NCBI GenBank assembly: GCA_024277435.1
Contig: JAJRVJ010000009.1
Span: 1,226 to 65,225, forward strand
Direction: 5' to 3'
Length of the DNA: 64,000 bases
DNA from: Patescibacteria group bacterium
GTDB taxonomy: Bacteria; Patescibacteriota; Patescibacteriia; UBA9570
A program made the position numbers and the translations under genes. Under the pieces are notes generated by a model. The model was not told the origin of the DNA and did not search any database. It saw only the letters and a program-made list of their open reading frames with translations. Positions 46,887 to 64,000 of this stretch are shown piece after piece. Numbering within the stretch: the stretch's first letter is position 1; every line of letters starts with the position of its first letter.

Positions 46887-48497
46887 CTAGAGTGATTTTA
46901 CCATATACTCTTCGGCTAATTCATAGCCAAGCTTCTCGTAATATTTTCGTACACCAACACCGGCAATTACTGCCGATTTTTTGAATCCTTTTTCTTTTGC
47001 CACCATCTCGGCTTCAGCCATAAGTTTTCTACCCAACCCACGATGCTGCGCTGCCTTACTTACTTTATCTGATACTGGAATTAATTGGCCATATACATGG
47101 AGTTCTCGAATAATCGCCGCATCCTGAAGCTCTTCATACCAGTGATGATCTATAGATTGTAACCGTAAACGCACAAAACCAAATAGCTTTGTTCTATCTG
47201 CATTTTCATACGAAATAAAATATTCTGTTCCATCAGATGCTTCATACTCATCAATATATAATTGCGCTTCTTCAATACCAGAAATATCATCGCGTGGCTC
47301 ACGACAACGGATACAATCACACTGTGCGCCCTTATCTTGCATCATCTGGCGTAAATTAGTTACTGTATTTCCGCCCTCAATAGAATTTTCAGGAATATCA
47401 CGGACTAATCTTTCAATTCGACAATAATAAGGAACCTCATTTTTAATATCAATTAATAAATCTGTCAACGTTTGCTCTGAATATGATTTATAACGCCCTG
47501 CTTTCCAATGGCGATACAGTGGTGCAGATTTTACTACTACACAAGGATAAATTTTAATGTGATCGGGCTGATACGCTGGATCTGAAAAAATAGTTTTAAT
47601 ATCATGCAAATCAGTTTCAGGTATTGCCCCCGGTAAGTTTTGCATCATGTGATAGGTAATTTTAATCCCGGCTTCTTTCAATAACTTAGTTGCCTGTTGC
47701 ACACCCTCATTTGTTTGATCACGCAGCGTTAAAGCTAATACATGCTTATTTAATGTTTGCACACCAATTTGCATACGGGTAGCACCAAACCAGCGCAACC
47801 GCTTTACTTCTGCCTCATCAATATGATCTGGTCGAGTTTCTAACGTACAACCAATCACTCTATATTTTGCTATTTCATTTAAACGCTTGGCCTCTTCAAG
47901 TGTTTCTGCACCATCCGGCCGCTCATCTAAATTAAAGCCATCGTAACAACGCTTCATGAACCATTCTTGATAATCATTTGGATACGCTGTCCAAGTTCCT
48001 CCCAATACAATTAATTCACACTTTTCTGGAATGTGTCCATTACGCTCCAATGCCTCAATGCGTTTTGTTACTTGTTCATACGGATCAAACTTTAAACGCA
48101 ACGCTCGCATTGCGCCCGGCTCGGTATCAATATAACTCTTCGGCATATTCGATTCGGTTGGACAGTACGTACAACGACCTGGACACTGATACGGTTTCGT
48201 AAGAACTGTAATAGGTGCAATACCAGATAGTGTACGCACACTCCGCACCTGAAGTATTCTCATAAACGCAAAATCCTCTTCCATGTCACCTTGCTCAATC
48301 ATAGTGCGATACTCTTTAAGGATATCTGCGTTCGTAGGCATTTGAATTTTATACTCCTTACATATCTCCGCTTTTACTCGGCGCAATTCCAAAGCATCGC
48401 CAACGCTGCGGTTGATGGATTTCGTAATAATTTCACGCACTGCCTCTACTGGTGACGTTACTTTATTATCTAATTTTGTTACAGGCCCTGTATTCAT
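46887..48497 (-). CDS. elp3: Elp3-like radical-SAM + GNAT protein (tRNA wobble-uridine carboxymethyl/acetyl-transferase homolog)
   Basis: Radical-SAM CPGRCTYC (CxxxCxxC), a TIM-barrel region, and a C-terminal GNAT with HRGLGRKLMAEAE. The length of 536 aa matches Elp3. Confidence 0.85.
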   Translation of the reverse strand: MNTGPVTKLDNKVTSPVEAVREIITKSINRSVGDALELRRVKAEICKEYKIQMPTNADILKEYRTMIEQGDMEEDFAFMRILQVRSVRTLSGIAPITVLTKPYQCPGRCTYCPTESNMPKSYIDTEPGAMRALRLKFDPYEQVTKRIEALERNGHIPEKCELIVLGGTWTAYPNDYQEWFMKRCYDGFNLDERPDGAETLEEAKRLNEIAKYRVIGCTLETRPDHIDEAEVKRLRWFGATRMQIGVQTLNKHVLALTLRDQTNEGVQQATKLLKEAGIKITYHMMQNLPGAIPETDLHDIKTIFSDPAYQPDHIKIYPCVVVKSAPLYRHWKAGRYKSYSEQTLTDLLIDIKNEVPYYCRIERLVRDIPENSIEGGNTVTNLRQMMQDKGAQCDCIRCREPRDDISGIEEAQLYIDEYEASDGTEYFISYENADRTKLFGFVRLRLQSIDHHWYEELQDAAIIRELHVYGQLIPVSDKVSKAAQHRGLGRKLMAEAEMVAKEKGFKKSAVIAGVGVRKYYEKLGYELAEEYMVKSL

Positions 48498-50911: not shown

Positions 50912-52309
50912 ATGAAACAAAAGGTCGCTCAAACTTTACCCCTAATGCTAACGTTTAGTGCAGTACTCACTCTCGGTGTACTGTTTTTTTCGTTTACAGC
51001 AGTAGATGCCGCCTTAGAAATTAATGATGAAACTACGCCGCCAGAAACAACCACAGAAACTAAAGAAAAAACAAAACGTACCAATGCTGAAATTAATAAA
51101 AAGGATACCGATTCGATAAAAAAAGATTCGCCTAAAATAGAATCTACAAAAAATGTCGTTCAATCAGATACGGATGAACAATCAAGTACCCTAAAAGTAT
51201 ATGAAGATACCTACACTGTTGCTGGGGAAACAATAGAACTGAATGGGTATTTTAAAAATGATGTTATCGTTGCCGGGAATAACGTTACGATTTCTGGAGT
51301 TGTAGAAGGTGATGTAATTTCAGCTGCTGCTAATATTACAATCGATGCCGTTATAAGTGGCGACGCACGACTAGCTGGTGGAAATATTACCATCCAAAAT
51401 GTGATAGAACGCAATGCAACGGTATTCGGCGGAAGAGTTATTATAGAAGACAGTGCCAATATCCAGCGTGATCTTTTTGTACAGGCCGGAGACCTCCTCA
51501 TTGAGGGGGGTATTGATGGTGAGATTTCTGGAAGTGCTGGCAATACAATAATTGATGCGCCAGTTAACGGTGATGTGTATTTCAAAAGTGTCGGAAATTT
51601 ACGCTTACGCTCTAACGCAAAAATTAATGGCGATCTATATTATTCCTCCGCACAGCAAGTTGTAGCTGATGATATAGCTATTATTAATGGTGAAACAGTC
51701 TACTCACCGCCACTAGTTGAACCAAGAGAACAAACATCAAAATTCACACTATGGTTTTGGGTTCGTAAAGTAACCGGACTATTTGGATTGTGGTTATTGG
51801 GTATTGTTGTATTGAATGTACTTAAACGAAAATCTGTTGCTGTAGTAAAACATATGCTTGCTTATGTAGGACAAAGTATGGGGTGGGGCGTAATATACGT
51901 ATTCACTGTCCCGGCCGTACTTACAGTGCTATTAATTACTCTTGTAGGAATACCTTTAAGTATCTTTGGATTACTATTATTTGGAGCATCGCTGTACTTA
52001 GCAAAAATTTATATTGGCACAGCCATTGGTAAGCTTATATTCTCAAAACAACAATCAATGATTTGGCCAATGCTCGCCGGTGTAACTATTTACTACATCC
52101 TCATTGAAGGCCTAGGATTGCTGCCATTCCCATGGCTTATTGCTGGATCACTTGTAAATGCAATTGGTATTATCTGGGCTGCCGGTGGAATCGTGTTGTA
52201 CTTACGAGATCGTATGCGCGAACACAATGCTAAACCATCCATCAAACACCGTAAGAACAAAACAACCAAGTCCGTTAAAAACAAAAAGACAAAGCCAGTT
52301 AATCTGTAA
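50912..52309 (+). CDS. Secreted/membrane protein with bactofilin-like (polymer-forming, DUF583-type) β-helical repeat domain followed by ~6 TM helices and Lys-rich tail
   Basis: Signal peptide, T/E/K-rich spacer, and repeats such as VAGNNVTISGVVEGDVISAAANITIDAVISGDARLAGGNITIQNVIERNATVFGG. The C-terminal half is hydrophobic and the tail reads KHRKNKTTKSVKNKKTK. Confidence 0.6.
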   Translation: MKQKVAQTLPLMLTFSAVLTLGVLFFSFTAVDAALEINDETTPPETTTETKEKTKRTNAEINKKDTDSIKKDSPKIESTKNVVQSDTDEQSSTLKVYEDTYTVAGETIELNGYFKNDVIVAGNNVTISGVVEGDVISAAANITIDAVISGDARLAGGNITIQNVIERNATVFGGRVIIEDSANIQRDLFVQAGDLLIEGGIDGEISGSAGNTIIDAPVNGDVYFKSVGNLRLRSNAKINGDLYYSSAQQVVADDIAIINGETVYSPPLVEPREQTSKFTLWFWVRKVTGLFGLWLLGIVVLNVLKRKSVAVVKHMLAYVGQSMGWGVIYVFTVPAVLTVLLITLVGIPLSIFGLLLFGASLYLAKIYIGTAIGKLIFSKQQSMIWPMLAGVTIYYILIEGLGLLPFPWLIAGSLVNAIGIIWAAGGIVLYLRDRMREHNAKPSIKHRKNKTTKSVKNKKTKPVNL

Positions 52310-55611: not shown

Positions 55612-56352
55612 ATGATTGGTATATATGATTCAGGAATAGGTGGCTTAGGAATTTTCAAAAAAATCCGTGGAATTCTACCATATGAATCTATCACGTATTT
55701 TGCAGATTCTGCACATTTTCCTTTTGGCGATCGAGATAAAGATGAAATCCGATCAATTACACTTACCGCTTTACAGAAACTAGAACAAACCTGTGACGTT
55801 ATTATTATTGCCTGCAATACTGCTTCAGTGAACGATATCGATTACTATCGCAACAATATTACAGCGCCAATCATCGCTGTTGTACCCGTAATTAAAACTG
55901 CAGCTCATGTAACCGATACAAATCATATTGCTTTACTGGCAACTACATCAACCAATTCGGCATCATACACCGATAATCTCATTCAACAATTTGCTAATAC
56001 TGTAACTGTAGAAAAAATTAGCTGCTCCGGATTAGCGGATGCAGTTGAATATGATGATGTGAACAAACAACGTTTACTACTTGAAGATGCGCTTAAAAAC
56101 TTAGGTGATATTGATGTGATTGTGCTCGGCTGTACTCACTACACATTAATTAAAGGCTTGATTCAAAACATCGCTGGGCCAGAGGTAAAAATCCTTGATT
56201 CCAATACAGCAGTCGCCCGCCACGCATTACGAATTATGCATGAAACCAATGTTGAGCAACCACAAAATACTCCAGAATACATATTTCTAAGTAGTAATAC
56301 AGATGATGCTAGCTATCGAGAACGCATCACTGCAATTCTTCAAACATTATAA
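55612..56352 (+). CDS. murI: Glutamate racemase
   Basis: IGIYDSGIGGL and ...IIIACNTAS...VLGCTHY catalytic Cys motifs. Confidence 0.9.
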   Translation: MIGIYDSGIGGLGIFKKIRGILPYESITYFADSAHFPFGDRDKDEIRSITLTALQKLEQTCDVIIIACNTASVNDIDYYRNNITAPIIAVVPVIKTAAHVTDTNHIALLATTSTNSASYTDNLIQQFANTVTVEKISCSGLADAVEYDDVNKQRLLLEDALKNLGDIDVIVLGCTHYTLIKGLIQNIAGPEVKILDSNTAVARHALRIMHETNVEQPQNTPEYIFLSSNTDDASYRERITAILQTL

Positions 56353-57639
56353 CGCCTTTACCAGCTTCACAAACTGTTTACCACGTGCAAACTCGTTCAT
56401 ATGCGGTAACCATGTAACACCTGGAGATAGTAAAATAATATCTCCTTTTTTAGATACTTCCCAAGCCTGCTGAACAGCATCTTTCATATCAATAGTAAGT
56501 GTACCTTCTGGAAATTGATCATTTGCATTACCGGGCTGTAGTAAGAACAAATGTTTCACGCTCTTCTCAATTTCTTTACGCAATTCACCTAATGGAAGCT
56601 GTTTGGAATTACCACCAGCTATTAAAATTACTTTCTTTTTAAATGAACGTAGTGCAGCAATGGCTGCATCAGGAGTAGTAGCGGTAGTATCATTATAAAA
56701 CTCTCGGCCTTTGTATGTACGAATCAATTCTAAACGATCTGGCACGCCTGCAAAATTTCTAATCACTTTCTTCATCTTTGCATCGGAAACACCCATTTGT
56801 TTACCTACCTCATATGCCGCAGCCACATTACTATGGTTGTGCTCACCCCGCAACTTCATATTCTTCACCTTCTTTTTCGCAAACATAATCACTTCAGCCG
56901 TGGTTAATGTAACCATCTTCTTTACCACCTCATCATTAGTATTAAGAATTGCTATATCATTATAGGTTTGCCCTAAGAAAATGCGCTCCTTATCTTTACG
57001 ATATGCCGCCATGCTTGGATACGCATTCATATGATCCTTCAAGAAGTTAGTAAACAGAGCAATATGAAAGGATGGATTCTGCAAATCTCGGAGCAACCAA
57101 CTTGATAGCTCCAATACAATAATATGACCAGATCGTACTTTCGATAAAAACTTCAACGGTGATACACCAATATTACCACCAACATGTACGGCATCTTTCC
57201 CATAATGTGCGCGCAAAATCTCACCAGTTAACGCTGTAGCAGTACTTTTCCCACGCGTACCAGTGATAGCGATAATTGGCACTTCCATGGAAGAATATTT
57301 TTTACGTAGTTCATTAATGAATATTCCAACATCATTTGTAATTGGCTTTTTGAGTTTATGCGCTAATTGTATATATTCTGATGAGTCAGGTACACCCGGA
57401 TTACGCACAATTAAACGCGCAGATCGAATATCAGATTTGCGATGCCTCCCTAATACCAATTCTACATTCTTATACTTTTTGAGTTTACGCAAGGTTGGTT
57501 GATGTAATTGATCAGCTGTTTTACTATCCGTAATAACAACTTTTTCTCCTTGCCTCTTTTGGCTTTGCCGAGCAAACCACAAAGCCGCTACTGTACCACT
57601 ACCCGTTGGATAACTACCTAAGCCAAAAATGAGAACCAT
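56347..57639 (-). CDS. murD: UDP-N-acetylmuramoyl-L-alanine--D-glutamate ligase
   Basis: Mur ligase pattern with P-loop IIAITGTRGKST and MurD-like N- and C-terminal domains. Confidence 0.85.
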   Translation of the reverse strand: MVLIFGLGSYPTGSGTVAALWFARQSQKRQGEKVVITDSKTADQLHQPTLRKLKKYKNVELVLGRHRKSDIRSARLIVRNPGVPDSSEYIQLAHKLKKPITNDVGIFINELRKKYSSMEVPIIAITGTRGKSTATALTGEILRAHYGKDAVHVGGNIGVSPLKFLSKVRSGHIIVLELSSWLLRDLQNPSFHIALFTNFLKDHMNAYPSMAAYRKDKERIFLGQTYNDIAILNTNDEVVKKMVTLTTAEVIMFAKKKVKNMKLRGEHNHSNVAAAYEVGKQMGVSDAKMKKVIRNFAGVPDRLELIRTYKGREFYNDTTATTPDAAIAALRSFKKKVILIAGGNSKQLPLGELRKEIEKSVKHLFLLQPGNANDQFPEGTLTIDMKDAVQQAWEVSKKGDIILLSPGVTWLPHMNEFARGKQFVKLVKAL

Positions 57640-58661: not shown

Positions 58662-59303
58662 CTATACAAGCGGATCGGTACTAAACCCTTGCATATTATG
58701 TCGTAACTGCAGCGTAATTGCAAATAACAAACTTACTATAGCTATACCTGTTGATAATAAAAATATCCAGGTTGAATTAGACAGCGCCTCTTCTTGAGTA
58801 ACCTCAAATTGAGCGACTACTTCTTCATCACTACGCACTCCATTATATATGGTTTGCACATATGCTTCATACATACCATGATCTAGTTCATCAACAGGAA
58901 CCTCCACACTCCACACTCCATCTATATTTGCAGTTGTTGAAGTACGTATATAACTATTTGGGATAAGAATTGTTACCGCAGTACCTGGTTGCAATGCCTC
59001 TCCAGAAAAATAGATTACTGTTTCTTGATCCTTCTCTAAAAAACTATCTAATCCAATATATTGAATGGTATTTAATCGAACCGTATTATTAACAACCTCC
59101 TTTTGAGCAATGACAATATCATTTTGCTTAGCTTGAACGCTCATGTTAGGAATAATTTCTTGTTGCAAAATACGATTAGCCTCTTGTAGATCATTAACAG
59201 AAACTACTTGATATTCTTGGGTAGCAAAACCAACACTAGGCAATAATACGCTAAGTGCAATATATATTCCTATTATATATTTTAAATTTGCATTAATTTG
59301 CAT
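58662..59303 (-). CDS. Secreted hypothetical protein sharing the C-terminal anchor module (..EE.LSN.TW-TM-LQLR) with the adjacent giant protein
   Basis: Signal peptide. C-terminus AQFEVTQEEALSNSTWIFLLSTGIAIVSLLFAITLQLRHN matches the giant protein's ARFVIEEETRLSNTTWLVIINIIVALIALMVSIILQLRKQ. Confidence 0.55.
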   Translation of the reverse strand: MQINANLKYIIGIYIALSVLLPSVGFATQEYQVVSVNDLQEANRILQQEIIPNMSVQAKQNDIVIAQKEVVNNTVRLNTIQYIGLDSFLEKDQETVIYFSGEALQPGTAVTILIPNSYIRTSTTANIDGVWSVEVPVDELDHGMYEAYVQTIYNGVRSDEEVVAQFEVTQEEALSNSTWIFLLSTGIAIVSLLFAITLQLRHNMQGFSTDPLV

Positions 59304-62300
59304 TGGAAATTTCTTGAAGTGAGCGAGTTCGTTGTTTTCGAAGTTGTAAAATAATCGATACCATCAAGGCTATCAACGCTACAATAATATTAATAATCAC
59401 TAACCATGTTGTATTCGATAGTCGCGTCTCTTCTTCAATAACAAACCGAGCTATCTCCACTTGATCTCCCTGTACACCATTTATTTGACTAGCTACATGA
59501 ACTGTATGCTCACCTTCTACAAGTAAGTTTGTTGGTAGCGTCATCTGCCAAGCGCCATCAGATGCTTGCGCAATTTGTACAATAGGATCGGAAAATACTG
59601 TAGTAGTAATTAATGCTGGTAGTTGTTTTAAAAATAATGGCTTCACATTCTCTTGTAGTGACGGCAATACACCAGCCAATACAATTGAAGTATCTTGATC
59701 TTGATTAGGCTGCGGCTTTCTTAATACCCAAGCCACGATATCAGCAATGGTAATTGTACGTTGAATAGTTACCACAGGGATATCATCATCACTAACCGTT
59801 GCATTCGCACCAACGTTGATTGAAAATAATGTTTCACGCATATCCAATGTTAGGCCGCCTTGGAAGAAAAATGACTGCAATTCAGATAGTGCAATAACTG
59901 GCTCTGTAAGGGCATATGTCGTTGGCTCTTCTGTACCAGTTGCGTCGTATGTTGAGGAAGCGGTATCTTGGGCAGTATCTTGCGCTGAGTTCACATCAAT
60001 TTCAATGGATAAATCACCATCCAATTGATCAATAATTCCATCATTATCGGTATCACTAGTTGTAGGATCTGTACCTAACGTATCTTCAACGGCATCAAGT
60101 AAGCCATCATCATCAGAATCCTTATCATTAGGATCTGAGCCCTTATCAACCTCTTCACCATCCGATAATTCATCATCATCACTATCCTCATCTACTGGAT
60201 CAGTACCAGCTTCTGATTCTTCATTATCATCTAGGCCATCACCGTCGGTGTCGGCATCTGTAGGATTAGTACCAGCTGCTAGCTCATCTGCATCATTAAT
60301 ACCATCACCATCGGTGTCGGCGTTAGTAGGATCAGTTCCTAAACTAAGCTCATCTGCATCATTAATACCATCACCATCGGTGTCGACTGATAATGGATTT
60401 GTACCAAGTAAAACTTCATCACTATCAGAAATACCATCACCATCGGTGTCGGCGTTAGTAGGATCAGTTCCTAATTCATCTTCTTGATCTCCGCCAATCC
60501 AATCATCGTCTTCATCATCTTCTCCTGGGTTATCAATTTCCTCCTCAATACCGTCAGAAATACCATCTCCATCACTATCAGCATTTGTTGGATCTGTTCC
60601 TGCATCTTGCTCATCGCTATCAGAAATACCATCACCGTCGGTGTCGGCATCTGTAGGATTAGTACCAGCTGCTAGCTCGTCGCCATCGGAAATACCATCA
60701 TTATCGCTGTCCATCGCTAACGGATTACTGAGCGCAATAACTTCATCACCATCCGAGATGCCATCGCTATCGCTATCAGTATTAGTAGGATCGGTTCCTA
60801 AATCTACTTCTTCACCATCAGTAAGTCCATCGCCATCGGTGTCGGCATTAGTAGAATCGGTACTATATAATGGCTCATCATAATCACTTAACCCATCATC
60901 ATCAGCGTCATCATCAATTGGGCTAGGATCTTCACCATCGGGTATTCCATCGCCATCAGAATCATTACTCCCTGGCTCAGTCCCTAATATAATTTCTAAA
61001 CCATCACCCAAACCATCGTTATCTGTATCGGCATTTACAGGATCGGTACCATTTTGTATTTCCTGACCATCAGTAATACCATCACCATCAGAATCACTTT
61101 GATTAACATCTGTGCCAAGATCCCGCTCTATATCATCATCTACACCATCATTATCGGCATCAGTATCGGTAACATCTGGAATACCATCACTATCAGTATC
61201 GGGCAAGTCACTACTATCATCAACATCAACTAGCTCTATAACCACACCCGGATCATCATCTTCACCGTCATTAATACCATCATTATCAGTATCAGGATTA
61301 TCTGGTAATGTACCTTGATTAATTTCCTCTTGATCACTCACACCATCACCGTCGGTGTCGGCGTTAGTAGGATCAGTACCCAAGTCTTGCTCTTCTTGAT
61401 CTGTTAAACCATCATTATCAGAATCAATATCTGTATCATCAACGGGAGCGTCGTCAATAACCGGCGTATCATCAACTTGATCGCTAGCGTCTGTTGCGTC
61501 ATCTGTATCAGTTGCATCGTCTACCTGACCATCAACATCATCAGTGGTATCAATAGCATCCACTGGAAGTGTACTTACTACTGGCGCTGGTTTATATGTA
61601 ATAATACTTAATGATGTAAAAACAGATTTAAATAAATTTGGACTAATGCCTCGTAAATAAAACTGCTGTGTGCCTGTACTTGTTCCAATATATTGATTCA
61701 AATTAATAGTTGCGCCATTATTTACCGATACTCTTTCAAACAATAGTTGTTTATTCTTATCAAACAACTGAATCAGATAATCATTAGGAGCTGCAACAGT
61801 TAAATTAATCGTACTATCTAATGAATGACGTGAACCCTCTTCTGGAGCAATGATGCCTGGTTGCACTGGTTTATGAATTGACCATACTTTGACCTTATAA
61901 TCTTGAATTACCTTACCCTTACCACCAGTTTCTTTAATGGTTAATTCCACTGGCCCTTTGGGCCATGGGAATAATGTGAATTTATTACTACCCGAAATCA
62001 CACCTTGTCCCGTATTATCAGTTGGCCCCTCTAATGTATATGGGCCACCAAGAAAATCAGCGGACATTGTTAGCGTACTGCCCGGATTATACTTAAGGTA
62101 TGCCAATGTTGGATTTTTTGCAGTAGTAACACGCTGGCCACTACGCTGATCTAATGAAAGTACATTACTCACTCCATCCGCTACAATCATTTCCAGAGTG
62201 TTAGTAACATTTTTGCCATTAGTAGCTTTAATCTCTAAATCATACACCCCAGCCCCCACAAAAAATGGCATGGCACACGATGCTAGATTACTCGCATCAA

Positions 62301-64000
62301 TACTTCCATTACAACTTACAGCCACTGCGCCAGATTTTTGATTTAATATATTGAATACAATTTTTGCTCCTTGTTGCATGGTTGGTACATATGCAATGAA
62401 TTCTTCAGGTACACTATTCAAAATTATTGCATCACCAAATTGTGGATTCGGAAACACTAATTGAGCCGCCTGATGTTTCGCTGTAAATGTAAAACGCTTC
62501 TTTAAAGCAACATTCTTTTTTGCATTATTTGGATTTGTTAACCCAGTAGAAACCGCATACGATTTACCAAGTTCAAGCTGCTTTTTCTTTACAACGAAAT
62601 CAACTTGCTTCTTTTTATCTGCAGCTTTCTTCTTATTTACAATCTGCTTACCAACTTTATCTGTTTTCTTCTTATAGTTATTTACTACAAACTGAACGAT
62701 ATTACCTTCATCAACGCCCTCCAATTCAAATGTAAGCTTTTCGTTCGGAAGATCAATATGCACGTTATCACCACCTTCAACTTTTGCATTTGCGGTATTG
62801 CCAGTAATTGTAAAATTATTAATACTCTCCTCCGTATCACTTAATGTTGTAACTGTCTGATCAGCTGAAGTACGAGCATTACCATTTGCATCAGTGACTG
62901 TAACTTGATAGTGATACTGCGTACCAGCTGTTAAGCCCTTAAAGGTATGTGTATGTACTTTTTGTAAATTAGTATATGATGCGGCTTTGCCATAGTTAGT
63001 AGTTTCACCCATGTGAATTACCACTGTACTATTTTCATCGGTTTGCACACTAGCTGTAAAAGCACTCGCTGTTATATTAGTTGCTGTTAAGCTTTGAATT
63101 ACCGGCGCCGCGGTATCCTGTACCTCCTCTTCTTGAGCTACATCAGTAGCAAAATTACGAACACTATCGGTAAAAATCCCACTAACTCTATCACCATCCT
63201 TAAACAACACAATCATATAATAATATGTAGTTTCTGTGGTAAGACCTGTTATTTCCACTGCAAAATCGTTAGTTACCTCTGTTACTTGAACAAAATCTGT
63301 TTGTTTATTTTCAACGGCTGCTTGATCGGTACCATAATACACATCAGCCGTACCAGAGGCTTGGCCAGTTAACCATGTAATAGTTGCTGTAGTATCTGTA
63401 GTTGCAACCTCCAGATTGGTAATAGGATCATCATCCTGAGATTTTTGTGTAACAGTAAATTCTGATGAATTACCACCTGAAGTTTGCATTACCGCCACAG
63501 CTGATGCATCACCTAATTTTACGTCAGTTAATGTAAATTTCCCATCACCATCAGCCGTAACAGTACCAATATAATTTAAATTATCCTCAACCTCTGGATA
63601 CGCATATACATCAATCGTTGCATTAAATTCCGCTGCACCTTGCACAGTAGAGCTAGTATAATTCACCTCTGGCACAGTTAAGCTATCTTGCGCACCAGTA
63701 AAAATTGAAAAAATGTCATCGGTACCATTTTTATCATACATATTCTTCCTCCATTGATTTTGACGAGACGTAGCATCTCGCACAGCGATTCCTACTCTAG
63801 TATTGCCTACAATAGTATTTTGCGCTCGATCTGTTACTACTGTAGAACCAATTTCATTACCAATTGAACCATTATTAAGCATTACACCAGTTTGATTTAC
63901 TTCAATAACATTACCAGATACAATAGTATTTGATACCTCATCTAGTTGAATTCCTGATTGGGCGTTATACGATATTGTATTATATGTAATACGATTATTG
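59293..64000 (-). CDS. Giant cell-surface protein (>1,560 aa, 5' end beyond window): parallel β-helix repeats, FN3/Ig-like domains, Lys-rich linker, ~20 TSP3-type Ca-binding Asp-rich repeats, C-terminal TM anchor
   Basis: The frame stays open from 63882 to the window end (NNRITYNTISYNAQSGIQLDEVSNTIVSGNVIEVNQTGV...). FN3 segments (TATITWL...TYYYMIV). Repeats DTDGDGISDGDE(L)xxGTDPTNA. C-terminal hydrophobic helix plus RKQR. Confidence 0.8.
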   Translation of the reverse strand, partial: NNRITYNTISYNAQSGIQLDEVSNTIVSGNVIEVNQTGVMLNNGSIGNEIGSTVVTDRAQNTIVGNTRVGIAVRDATSRQNQWRKNMYDKNGTDDIFSIFTGAQDSLTVPEVNYTSSTVQGAAEFNATIDVYAYPEVEDNLNYIGTVTADGDGKFTLTDVKLGDASAVAVMQTSGGNSSEFTVTQKSQDDDPITNLEVATTDTTATITWLTGQASGTADVYYGTDQAAVENKQTDFVQVTEVTNDFAVEITGLTTETTYYYMIVLFKDGDRVSGIFTDSVRNFATDVAQEEEVQDTAAPVIQSLTATNITASAFTASVQTDENSTVVIHMGETTNYGKAASYTNLQKVHTHTFKGLTAGTQYHYQVTVTDANGNARTSADQTVTTLSDTEESINNFTITGNTANAKVEGGDNVHIDLPNEKLTFELEGVDEGNIVQFVVNNYKKKTDKVGKQIVNKKKAADKKKQVDFVVKKKQLELGKSYAVSTGLTNPNNAKKNVALKKRFTFTAKHQAAQLVFPNPQFGDAIILNSVPEEFIAYVPTMQQGAKIVFNILNQKSGAVAVSCNGSIDASNLASCAMPFFVGAGVYDLEIKATNGKNVTNTLEMIVADGVSNVLSLDQRSGQRVTTAKNPTLAYLKYNPGSTLTMSADFLGGPYTLEGPTDNTGQGVISGSNKFTLFPWPKGPVELTIKETGGKGKVIQDYKVKVWSIHKPVQPGIIAPEEGSRHSLDSTINLTVAAPNDYLIQLFDKNKQLLFERVSVNNGATINLNQYIGTSTGTQQFYLRGISPNLFKSVFTSLSIITYKPAPVVSTLPVDAIDTTDDVDGQVDDATDTDDATDASDQVDDTPVIDDAPVDDTDIDSDNDGLTDQEEQDLGTDPTNADTDGDGVSDQEEINQGTLPDNPDTDNDGINDGEDDDPGVVIELVDVDDSSDLPDTDSDGIPDVTDTDADNDGVDDDIERDLGTDVNQSDSDGDGITDGQEIQNGTDPVNADTDNDGLGDGLEIILGTEPGSNDSDGDGIPDGEDPSPIDDDADDDGLSDYDEPLYSTDSTNADTDGDGLTDGEEVDLGTDPTNTDSDSDGISDGDEVIALSNPLAMDSDNDGISDGDELAAGTNPTDADTDGDGISDSDEQDAGTDPTNADSDGDGISDGIEEEIDNPGEDDEDDDWIGGDQEDELGTDPTNADTDGDGISDSDEVLLGTNPLSVDTDGDGINDADELSLGTDPTNADTDGDGINDADELAAGTNPTDADTDGDGLDDNEESEAGTDPVDEDSDDDELSDGEEVDKGSDPNDKDSDDDGLLDAVEDTLGTDPTTSDTDNDGIIDQLDGDLSIEIDVNSAQDTAQDTASSTYDATGTEEPTTYALTEPVIALSELQSFFFQGGLTLDMRETLFSINVGANATVSDDDIPVVTIQRTITIADIVAWVLRKPQPNQDQDTSIVLAGVLPSLQENVKPLFLKQLPALITTTVFSDPIVQIAQASDGAWQMTLPTNLLVEGEHTVHVASQINGVQGDQVEIARFVIEEETRLSNTTWLVIINIIVALIALMVSIILQLRKQRTRSLQEISNAN
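60010..61560 (-). repeat. Coding tandem-repeat region (TSP3-like DxDxDGxxDxxE units); includes near-identical 66-bp DNA repeats (60281/60347) and ~390-bp-spaced duplicates (60241/60634)
   Basis: The direct nucleotide repeats are visible in the sequence. The plus-strand Ser-rich antisense ORFs are their mirror images. Confidence 0.8.

Follow-up and report, generated by a model that had tools for sequence, protein, structure and literature searches.

A bacterial TSP3 repeat array with a small, recently duplicated core in a predicted surface protein of a Patescibacteria-type bacterium

Bacterial TSP3 repeats were named for their resemblance to the type-3 repeats of thrombospondin and COMP, which are disulfide-bonded. 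Patescibacteria (also called CPR, for candidate phyla radiation) are believed to live in attachment to host cells, by a mode of attachment that is largely unknown, and large, fast-evolving surface proteins are obvious candidates for this role. In Myxococcus, the Ca2+-dependent gliding of cells on a rigid surface of chitosan-coated glass requires CglD, in which a DxDxDG repeat occurs twelve-fold (bioRxiv 10.1101/2023.10.19.562135), and the stalks of RTX adhesins are built of up to dozens of identical units of ~250–650 bp (bioRxiv 10.1101/2025.09.30.679566). The 64-kb stretch of contig JAJRVJ010000009.1 analysed here (the window) encodes, on its minus strand, a giant predicted surface protein with an Asp-rich, TSP3-like repeat array, which an initial annotation had described as near-identical DNA repeats forming a built-in hotspot of length variation. 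That observation was partly confirmed, and its interpretation partly supported: the object is an ordinary bacterial TSP3 repeat stalk with a small, recently expanded zone, and not a proven variation hotspot.

The repeat array and its host protein

The array counts 21 DxDxDGxxD units, in line with the approximately 20 first proposed. The span originally assigned to it was 60010–61560; the units occupy 59989–61425 on the minus strand, and an acidic linker extends the array to ~61557. Most units are of 22 residues (66 nt), with the consensus DTDGDGxxDxxExxxGTDPTxx. They match the 22-position Pfam model TSP3_bac (PF18884; gathering score 25 bits) with 296 bits and E = 2.3e-90 in 17 stretches when the array alone is searched, and with 253 bits and E = 8e-77 when the open reading frame (ORF) is searched. 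Among 16 aligned units the acidic ligand positions D1, D3, D5, D9 and E12 are invariant, and G6 is present in at least 90%. Asp makes up 29.5% of the array, which has a net charge of −176 over 485 residues, and there is no cysteine in the 524 residues of linker and array. An AlphaFold2 model of five units, which carries no ions, shows an acidic loop and one helix of 6 or 7 residues per unit (predicted local distance difference test, pLDDT, 87). Foldseek returned four matches to the modelled units in the Protein Data Bank (PDB) at E ≤ 10; sequence searches of the PDB with the array, the N-terminal part of the protein and a unit profile gave no meaningful match. ORFs on the plus strand of the array (60248–60487, 60641–60883 and 61112–61318; 68–80 residues, rich in Ser, Pro and Val) were considered as genes and rejected as the antisense of GAT/GGT/ACT-rich repeats.

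The gene to which the array belongs continues past the end of the window. The ORF tool lists its start as an ATG at 63882; since the frame is open through 63883–64000 on the minus strand, this is not the true start. The full-length product, a protein of 1929 residues that was recovered by profile search (P0005), contains the 1568 residues encoded in the window exactly, from residue 362 onwards; its first 361 residues, comprising the signal and most of a beta-helix, lie outside the window. P0005 begins with a hydrophobic, signal-like segment (residues 27–45), and a right-handed beta-helix (Beta_helix/NosD, residues 183–338) precedes two FN3-like domains, which are followed by ~450 residues with no Pfam match, the acidic linker and the array. 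The head N-terminal to the array is described as beta-helix, FN3-like and immunoglobulin-like (Ig-like) domains. In the C-terminal region of ~220 residues, helices and a beta-sandwich are modelled (pLDDT 90), and the protein ends in a strongly hydrophobic transmembrane (TM) helix (residues 1894–1912) and the sequence RKQRTR. The signal-like N-terminus, together with the C-terminal TM helix and basic residues, provides the hallmarks of a surface protein, as the initial annotation had proposed, and the layout predicted from them is that of a secreted protein whose C-terminus serves as the anchor. The N-terminal part is 46% identical to that of the closest orthologue, whereas the neighbouring tryptophanyl-tRNA synthetase (TrpRS) reaches 80%.

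In this architecture the 21 units would constitute a stalk, each unit consisting of an acidic DxDxDGxxDxxE loop with a short helix after it. Most probably the units bind Ca2+ and form a highly acidic, extended spacer that would sit between the membrane-proximal beta-sandwich and TM anchor and the distal beta-helix, FN3-like and Ig-like head. We infer both Ca2+ binding and the spacer role from the motif and from other proteins with TSP3 repeats, for example CglD, in which DxDxDG repeats accompany a Ca2+-dependent function.

Repetition at the nucleotide level

Over all 210 pairs of units, mean identity is 57% at the nucleotide level and 45% at the amino-acid level. Where residues are identical, the same codon is used at a fraction of 0.612, compared with 0.600 expected from the codon usage of the array, in which Asp is encoded by GAT in 125 of 143 cases. 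As codon sharing matches expectation, the greater part of the array repeats in its amino-acid sequence only. These values, and the arrays of orthologues that fit the same null (see below), are what would be expected of a static array, in which DNA similarity is a by-product of protein conservation and strong GAT/GGT codon bias and no recent duplication has occurred.

However, three exact direct repeats of 50, 45 and 39 nt (Table 1) are not accounted for by a static array. With two further tracts of 26 nt they are the sole exact direct repeats of at least 24 nt in the window, and all three touch the interval 60236–60474. They were compared with two nulls of 500 runs each, in which the longest exact repeat was scored. 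When synonymous codons were permuted with the protein kept, the longest tract had a mean of 20–21 nt and a maximum of 34 nt; when, more strictly, codons were shuffled within the equal position of the unit, the mean was 22.5 nt and the maximum 38 nt, with 0 of 500 runs reaching 39 nt. The length of even the shortest of the three tracts was thus reached in 0 of 1000 permutations, both nulls together. Furthermore, units 1097 and 1228 (window amino-acid numbering) have 17 of 18 codons in common, against 9.7 expected. The static reading is already disfavoured by the permutation tests, and we consider it very improbable.

The excess identity is localized. Only three 66-nt windows are at least 80% identical to another window of the array, all of them centred on 60240–60417, and Tandem Repeats Finder reports 3.5 copies of a 66-nt period with 76% matches at 60236–60468 only. 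The best pair of units is identical at 57 of 66 positions, and an adjacent pair at 54 of 66. The 66-bp pair 60281–60346 and 60347–60412, which had been described as nearly identical, matches at 50 of 66 positions (76%), exactly over bases 1–39 and then at 11 of 27, whereas the ~50-bp duplication reported 393 bp apart proved to be exact (60236–60285 and 60629–60678). A core of ~250 nt therefore carries real, recent DNA-level duplication or conversion, and it is to the three tracts of 39–50 nt in this core, not to the whole array, that the description as near-identical DNA repeats applies; repetition confined to the amino-acid level, which the initial annotation had named as refuting its reading, is found in ~85% of the array, and not in the core. 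What looked by eye like a DNA repeat hotspot is here mostly amino-acid repetition and codon bias, and synonymous-codon permutation is a simple test that separates the two levels.

The tracts converge on one unit, 1228, which is a patchwork: its head is the same as that of unit 1206 over 39 nt, the 50 nt formed by its tail and the next head recur at the 1097/1119 junction, and the 45 nt at the junction preceding it recur at the one preceding unit 1184. At the ends of the exact tracts identity drops abruptly to background, which fits recombination or gene-conversion breakpoints better than the gradual decay of whole-unit duplicates. As the spacings of 66, 132 and 393 nt are all divisible by 3, recombination between the tracts would be in frame, as had been anticipated, and could allow further changes of 1, 2 or ~6 units. 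The proposal of such length changes draws on what is generally known of how direct repeats recombine; the tracts would be a modest substrate, not a dedicated variation device.

It was also considered that the tracts and the central block to which they belong might be an assembly artefact, produced from mis-joined or collapsed short metagenome reads. The source is a single NCBI contig of 72.7 kb with no second copy in the collection, and short reads often yield wrong assemblies of repetitive adhesin genes (bioRxiv 10.1101/2025.09.30.679566). However, the tracts are at most 50 nt long, below typical read length, and each has unique flanks; the frame is intact over 1929 codons; and the limits of the block fall on unit borders and on an ancestral non-repeat insert conserved in the orthologue P0012. 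Given tracts below the length of a typical read and an unbroken frame, we regard mis-assembly as unlikely.

Unit number in syntenic orthologues and the history of the array

Six members of the protein family were traced to contigs, all of which share the gene order big protein, small protein, TrpRS and MurD. At the four loci compared, TrpRS is 65–80% identical to that of the window. The common gene order and the TrpRS identity together identify the six loci as positional orthologues. The initial annotation had suggested a comparison of repeat counts among strains or metagenome-assembled genomes; among the syntenic orthologues unit number differs, with 0, 6, 6, 10, 17, 20 and 21 units at the seven loci (Table 1). 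Stalk length is thereby documented to range over 0–21 units at one syntenic locus, and its growth is located centrally in the array. P0026 and P0016 have TrpRS proteins that are 83% identical and flanks that are collinear (52% identity over 1149 residues and 56% over 232 residues); nevertheless, ~496 array residues in P0026 match up with ~23 residues in P0016. Array length thus clearly changes over long evolutionary times, but not generically at the DNA level. In the arrays of P0026, P0012, P0008 and P0040 the longest exact repeats are of 15–21 nt, within the permutation null, and codon sharing is close to expectation. The lack of excess DNA identity in these four arrays indicates that arrays of the family are normally old and have diverged at synonymous sites. 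The array of P0040 (L006 3910–9984) contains a 50-residue double unit (22 + 28 residues) approximately seven times, an expansion unit that differs from that of the window, and no DNA-level identity is left between these double-unit repeats.

These comparisons bear directly on whether the window contains a contingency locus, as the initial annotation had read it. At such a locus a DNA-level repeat would be maintained, and its frequent slippage or recombination would change the length of the stalk among members of a population. The three exact tracts of 39–50 nt, which are in frame and spaced by 66, 132 and 393 nt, an orthologue unit number that ranges from 0 to 21, and an array interior more self-similar than its edges, as in the extender domains of RTX adhesins (bioRxiv 10.1101/2025.09.30.679566), are all consistent with such a locus. 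In contrast, mean unit identity is just 57%, codon sharing at identical residues equals expectation, and the best unit pair reaches 57 of 66. Known variable adhesins have many identical units of ~250–650 bp, far beyond the array of the window, in which the several identical or near-identical tandem nucleotide units typical of length-variable surface proteins are not found. The four orthologue arrays, for their part, show no DNA identity beyond that from protein repeats and codon usage, and the label of a built-in hotspot is not upheld; we consider a contingency locus unlikely.

The array of the window itself combines units of different histories. The units at window residues 1075–1228 find their best match within their own array, not among orthologue units; for the other 14, the best match is a unit of P0012 or P0008 in 12 cases and a tie in two. 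In the alignment with P0012 and P0008, the two closest orthologues, the first approximately six units and the last two or three are positionally conserved, and a non-repeat acidic insert (EEEIDNPGEDDEDDDW...) is also kept in position; approximately ten units flanking the insert are specific to the window, as are, towards the N-terminus, two edge units and a linker. Each of the three long exact tracts touches the central block, and they were not found in the DNA of the orthologues, with which the longest common run is at most 17 nt. A DNA cassette shared between genomes was likewise rejected, since no orthologue locus has a common run of more than 17 nt.

Taken as a whole, the evidence is best explained, with good probability, by the TSP3 stalk of a membrane-anchored surface protein that has old edges and a lineage-expanded centre. 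The array would be a mosaic, in which old edge units have positional counterparts in the orthologues and the central block (~60253–60777) has expanded in the lineage of the window through the duplication of units, unequal recombination or gene conversion, with the three exact tracts left by the latest of these events. Surface exposure is inferred, as would be any ongoing change in length. The source organism is best described as an uncultured, ultrasmall, Patescibacteria-type (CPR), Kerfeldbacteria-like bacterium.

Several points weigh against the explanation by a stalk with a recently expanded centre. Ca2+ binding and surface exposure are predictions, exact tracts of 39–50 nt are short substrates for homologous recombination by what is known from Escherichia coli, and we know of no information on the rates of such recombination in CPR bacteria. 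In addition, the contig was probably assembled from a metagenome, and its repeats may be mis-assembled. The four orthologue arrays tested contain no recent duplication, and the family looks stable over the time of synonymous saturation. The sole pair of almost identical relatives to have a long array, P0037 and P0154, with 20 units each and equal length, is 1 residue apart and too close to inform, and population data are not to be had from P0005 or from five housekeeping proteins encoded on the contig, each of them a singleton cluster.

The lineage of the window is otherwise unsampled. Seven window proteins that were looked up, including SHMT, iPGM, MurD and YchF, are singletons at 90% identity among ~15 billion sequences. 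The 840-residue N-terminal part of the giant protein gave three weak matches at the level of FN3 domains, and no orthologue, in an index of 5.8 billion proteins, and one relative each, at 23–24% identity, with no close relative, in genome and metagenome contigs.

Table 1 Coordinates of features in the window and number of array units at the syntenic loci. Positions are those of the window.
Feature	Position	Strand	Units	Details
Gene of the giant, predicted surface protein	59293–64000	−		runs past the window end; frame open to base 63999
FN3-like domain (Pur_ac_phosph_N type)	63211–63414	−		Pfam PF16656, E = 8.5e-10; PF00041, E = 1.1e-5
Second FN3 match	62863–62997	−		Pfam
Asp/Thr-rich acidic linker before the array	61426–61557	−		absent from the two closest orthologues
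TSP3_bac array	59989–61425	−	21	units of ~22 residues; DxDxDGxxD unit count, Pfam
Central lineage-specific block	60253–60777	−		units at window residues 1075–1228; lacking or much reduced in P0012 and P0008
Exact 50-nt repeat, copy 1	60236–60285	−		encodes ELAAGTNPTDADTDGDG; partner 393 nt away
Exact 50-nt repeat, copy 2	60629–60678	−		
Exact 45-nt repeat, copy 1	60298–60342	−		encodes LGTDPTNADTDGDGI; partner 132 nt away
Exact 45-nt repeat, copy 2	60430–60474	−		
Exact 39-nt tandem pair	60281–60385	−		60281–60319 and 60347–60385, 66 nt apart; encode TDGDGINDADEL
Conserved C-terminal module	59293–59600	−		beta-sandwich, LSNTTW motif, TM helix (59347–59403), basic tail LQLRKQRTR
Downstream partner gene	58662–59303	−		213 residues; signal-like N-terminus; 11-nt overlap with the giant gene
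Array of this window			21	
Array of P0040			20	partly a 50-residue double-unit super-repeat
Array of P0026			17	
Array of P0012			10	
Array of P0008			6	
Array of P0039			6	motif count
Array of P0016			0	motif count

Gene pair, neighbouring loci and comparison with known systems

A module of ~95 residues ends both the giant protein and the 213-residue product of the downstream partner gene (59293–59600 and 58662–58964, respectively), comprising a beta-sandwich, the motif LSN(T/S)TW, a TM helix and LQLR(K/H). At their C-termini the two proteins are 35% identical over 75 residues (E = 1e-15). The module has no Pfam match, and NCBIfam gives a single sub-threshold match, in the small protein. When a two-sequence profile of the module, built from the giant and the 213-residue protein, was searched against a library of 1.84 billion representatives, 187 clusters at the 50% identity level were obtained, 98 of them at E ≤ 1e-10. 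Most of the matches fall into two size classes, one of 1200–2000 residues, in which the module lies at the extreme C-terminus, and one of 180–270 residues. The index of 5.8 billion proteins returned nothing, either with the C-terminal 228 residues or with a 30-sequence profile of the module. The single named member of the module family is from Candidatus Kerfeldbacteria, and a more distant relative with FN3 and TSP3 domains lies on a Patescibacteria contig. In one subfamily (P0014, P0015, P0021, P0022, P0025, P0049, P0051 and others) a long tail continues beyond the TM helix and ends in an acidic run and then a conserved terminal motif, for example ...HSALGV, GGALGV or GPLDI.

In six related contigs the big gene forms a pair, syntenic with TrpRS and MurD, with a small gene (180–215 residues) that abuts or slightly overlaps it. 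The synteny of the pair in all six suggests that the big and small proteins work together, and the shared module may be a lineage-specific module for anchoring or sorting. We find this gene pair more interesting than the DNA repeats. A tentative possibility is that the shared module defines a lineage-specific system for surface anchoring or attachment, in which the TSP3 array would be an optional, evolvable, Ca2+-dependent tether of 0–21 units governing how far the head extends towards a host cell, and the expanded centre would be a snapshot of its tuning.

Other features of the window and of related loci were noted in passing. At the closest orthologous locus (L004 11697–14343) there is a MurL-type epimerase and a divergent Mur ligase, 28% identical to the MurD of the window, and at the window (55612–57639) and the other loci a Glu racemase and a MurD-like ligase are found instead, a difference suggesting that close relatives supply the peptidoglycan stem with D-Glu by two alternative routes. 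Upstream of the big gene, L004 (1–4659) encodes another giant surface protein (more than 2154 residues; DUF2341, Laminin_G_3, cadherin-like and Big_9 domains), so that surface-protein genes appear to cluster at this locus. Elsewhere in the window are an Elp3-like radical-SAM/GNAT protein (46887–48497, minus strand; ELP3_N, Radical_SAM and acetyltransferase domains) and a 465-residue protein with a weak bactofilin match (50912–52309, plus strand). Scans of the 64-kb window for tRNA genes and Rfam families found none.

The designation "TSP3-like" is right for the bacterial family and wrong as an assignment to the eukaryotic one. A tandem, acidic, calcium-binding motif of the DxDxDG type is common to the array and to the thrombospondin and COMP type-3 repeats, but the latter are disulfide-bonded and the array lacks cysteines. 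The eukaryotic model TSP_3 (PF02412) does not match the array even at E ≤ 10, and Foldseek matched no thrombospondin or COMP structure in the PDB to the modelled units. Membership of the eukaryotic family was therefore rejected, the tests by model, cysteines and fold having all failed. The best structural neighbour is the B domain of Bap from Staphylococcus aureus (PDB 7c7r), with 44% identity over 45 columns and a root-mean-square deviation of 0.7 Å; this match is local and statistically weak (E = 0.16), and the overall architectures are unrelated.

The same 22-residue tandem unit, DxDxDGxxDxxE...GTDP, makes up the PF18884 arrays of Myxococcus CglD and MtsD, which are large cell-surface proteins, as the protein of the window is predicted to be. 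Orthology to either was rejected: the score is 106.3 bits against a cutoff of 400 for CglD (NCBIfam NF033765) and 51.5 bits against a cutoff of 800 for MtsD (NF047639), and both matches are on the repeats only. In contrast to CglD and MtsD, the protein of the window has no VWA or EGF-like domain; it instead has a beta-helix and FN3-like head and a C-terminal TM anchor, and is encoded in a genome of the Patescibacteria type. Knowledge of TSP3-type repeats is unchanged by the present finding.

In its arrangement the array resembles the extenders of RTX and BIg adhesins, where a tandem stalk likewise lies between an anchor and a distal head. In both systems interior repeats are more alike than those at the edges and copy number varies among relatives, although this pattern of similar interior and dissimilar edges is much stronger in the RTX adhesins. 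The repeats of the RTX and BIg extenders are identical at the DNA level and variable between strains, whereas the units of the window are of 66 nt and on average 57% identical. With only three exact tracts of 39–50 nt, the scope for recombination in the array is far smaller than in those extenders.

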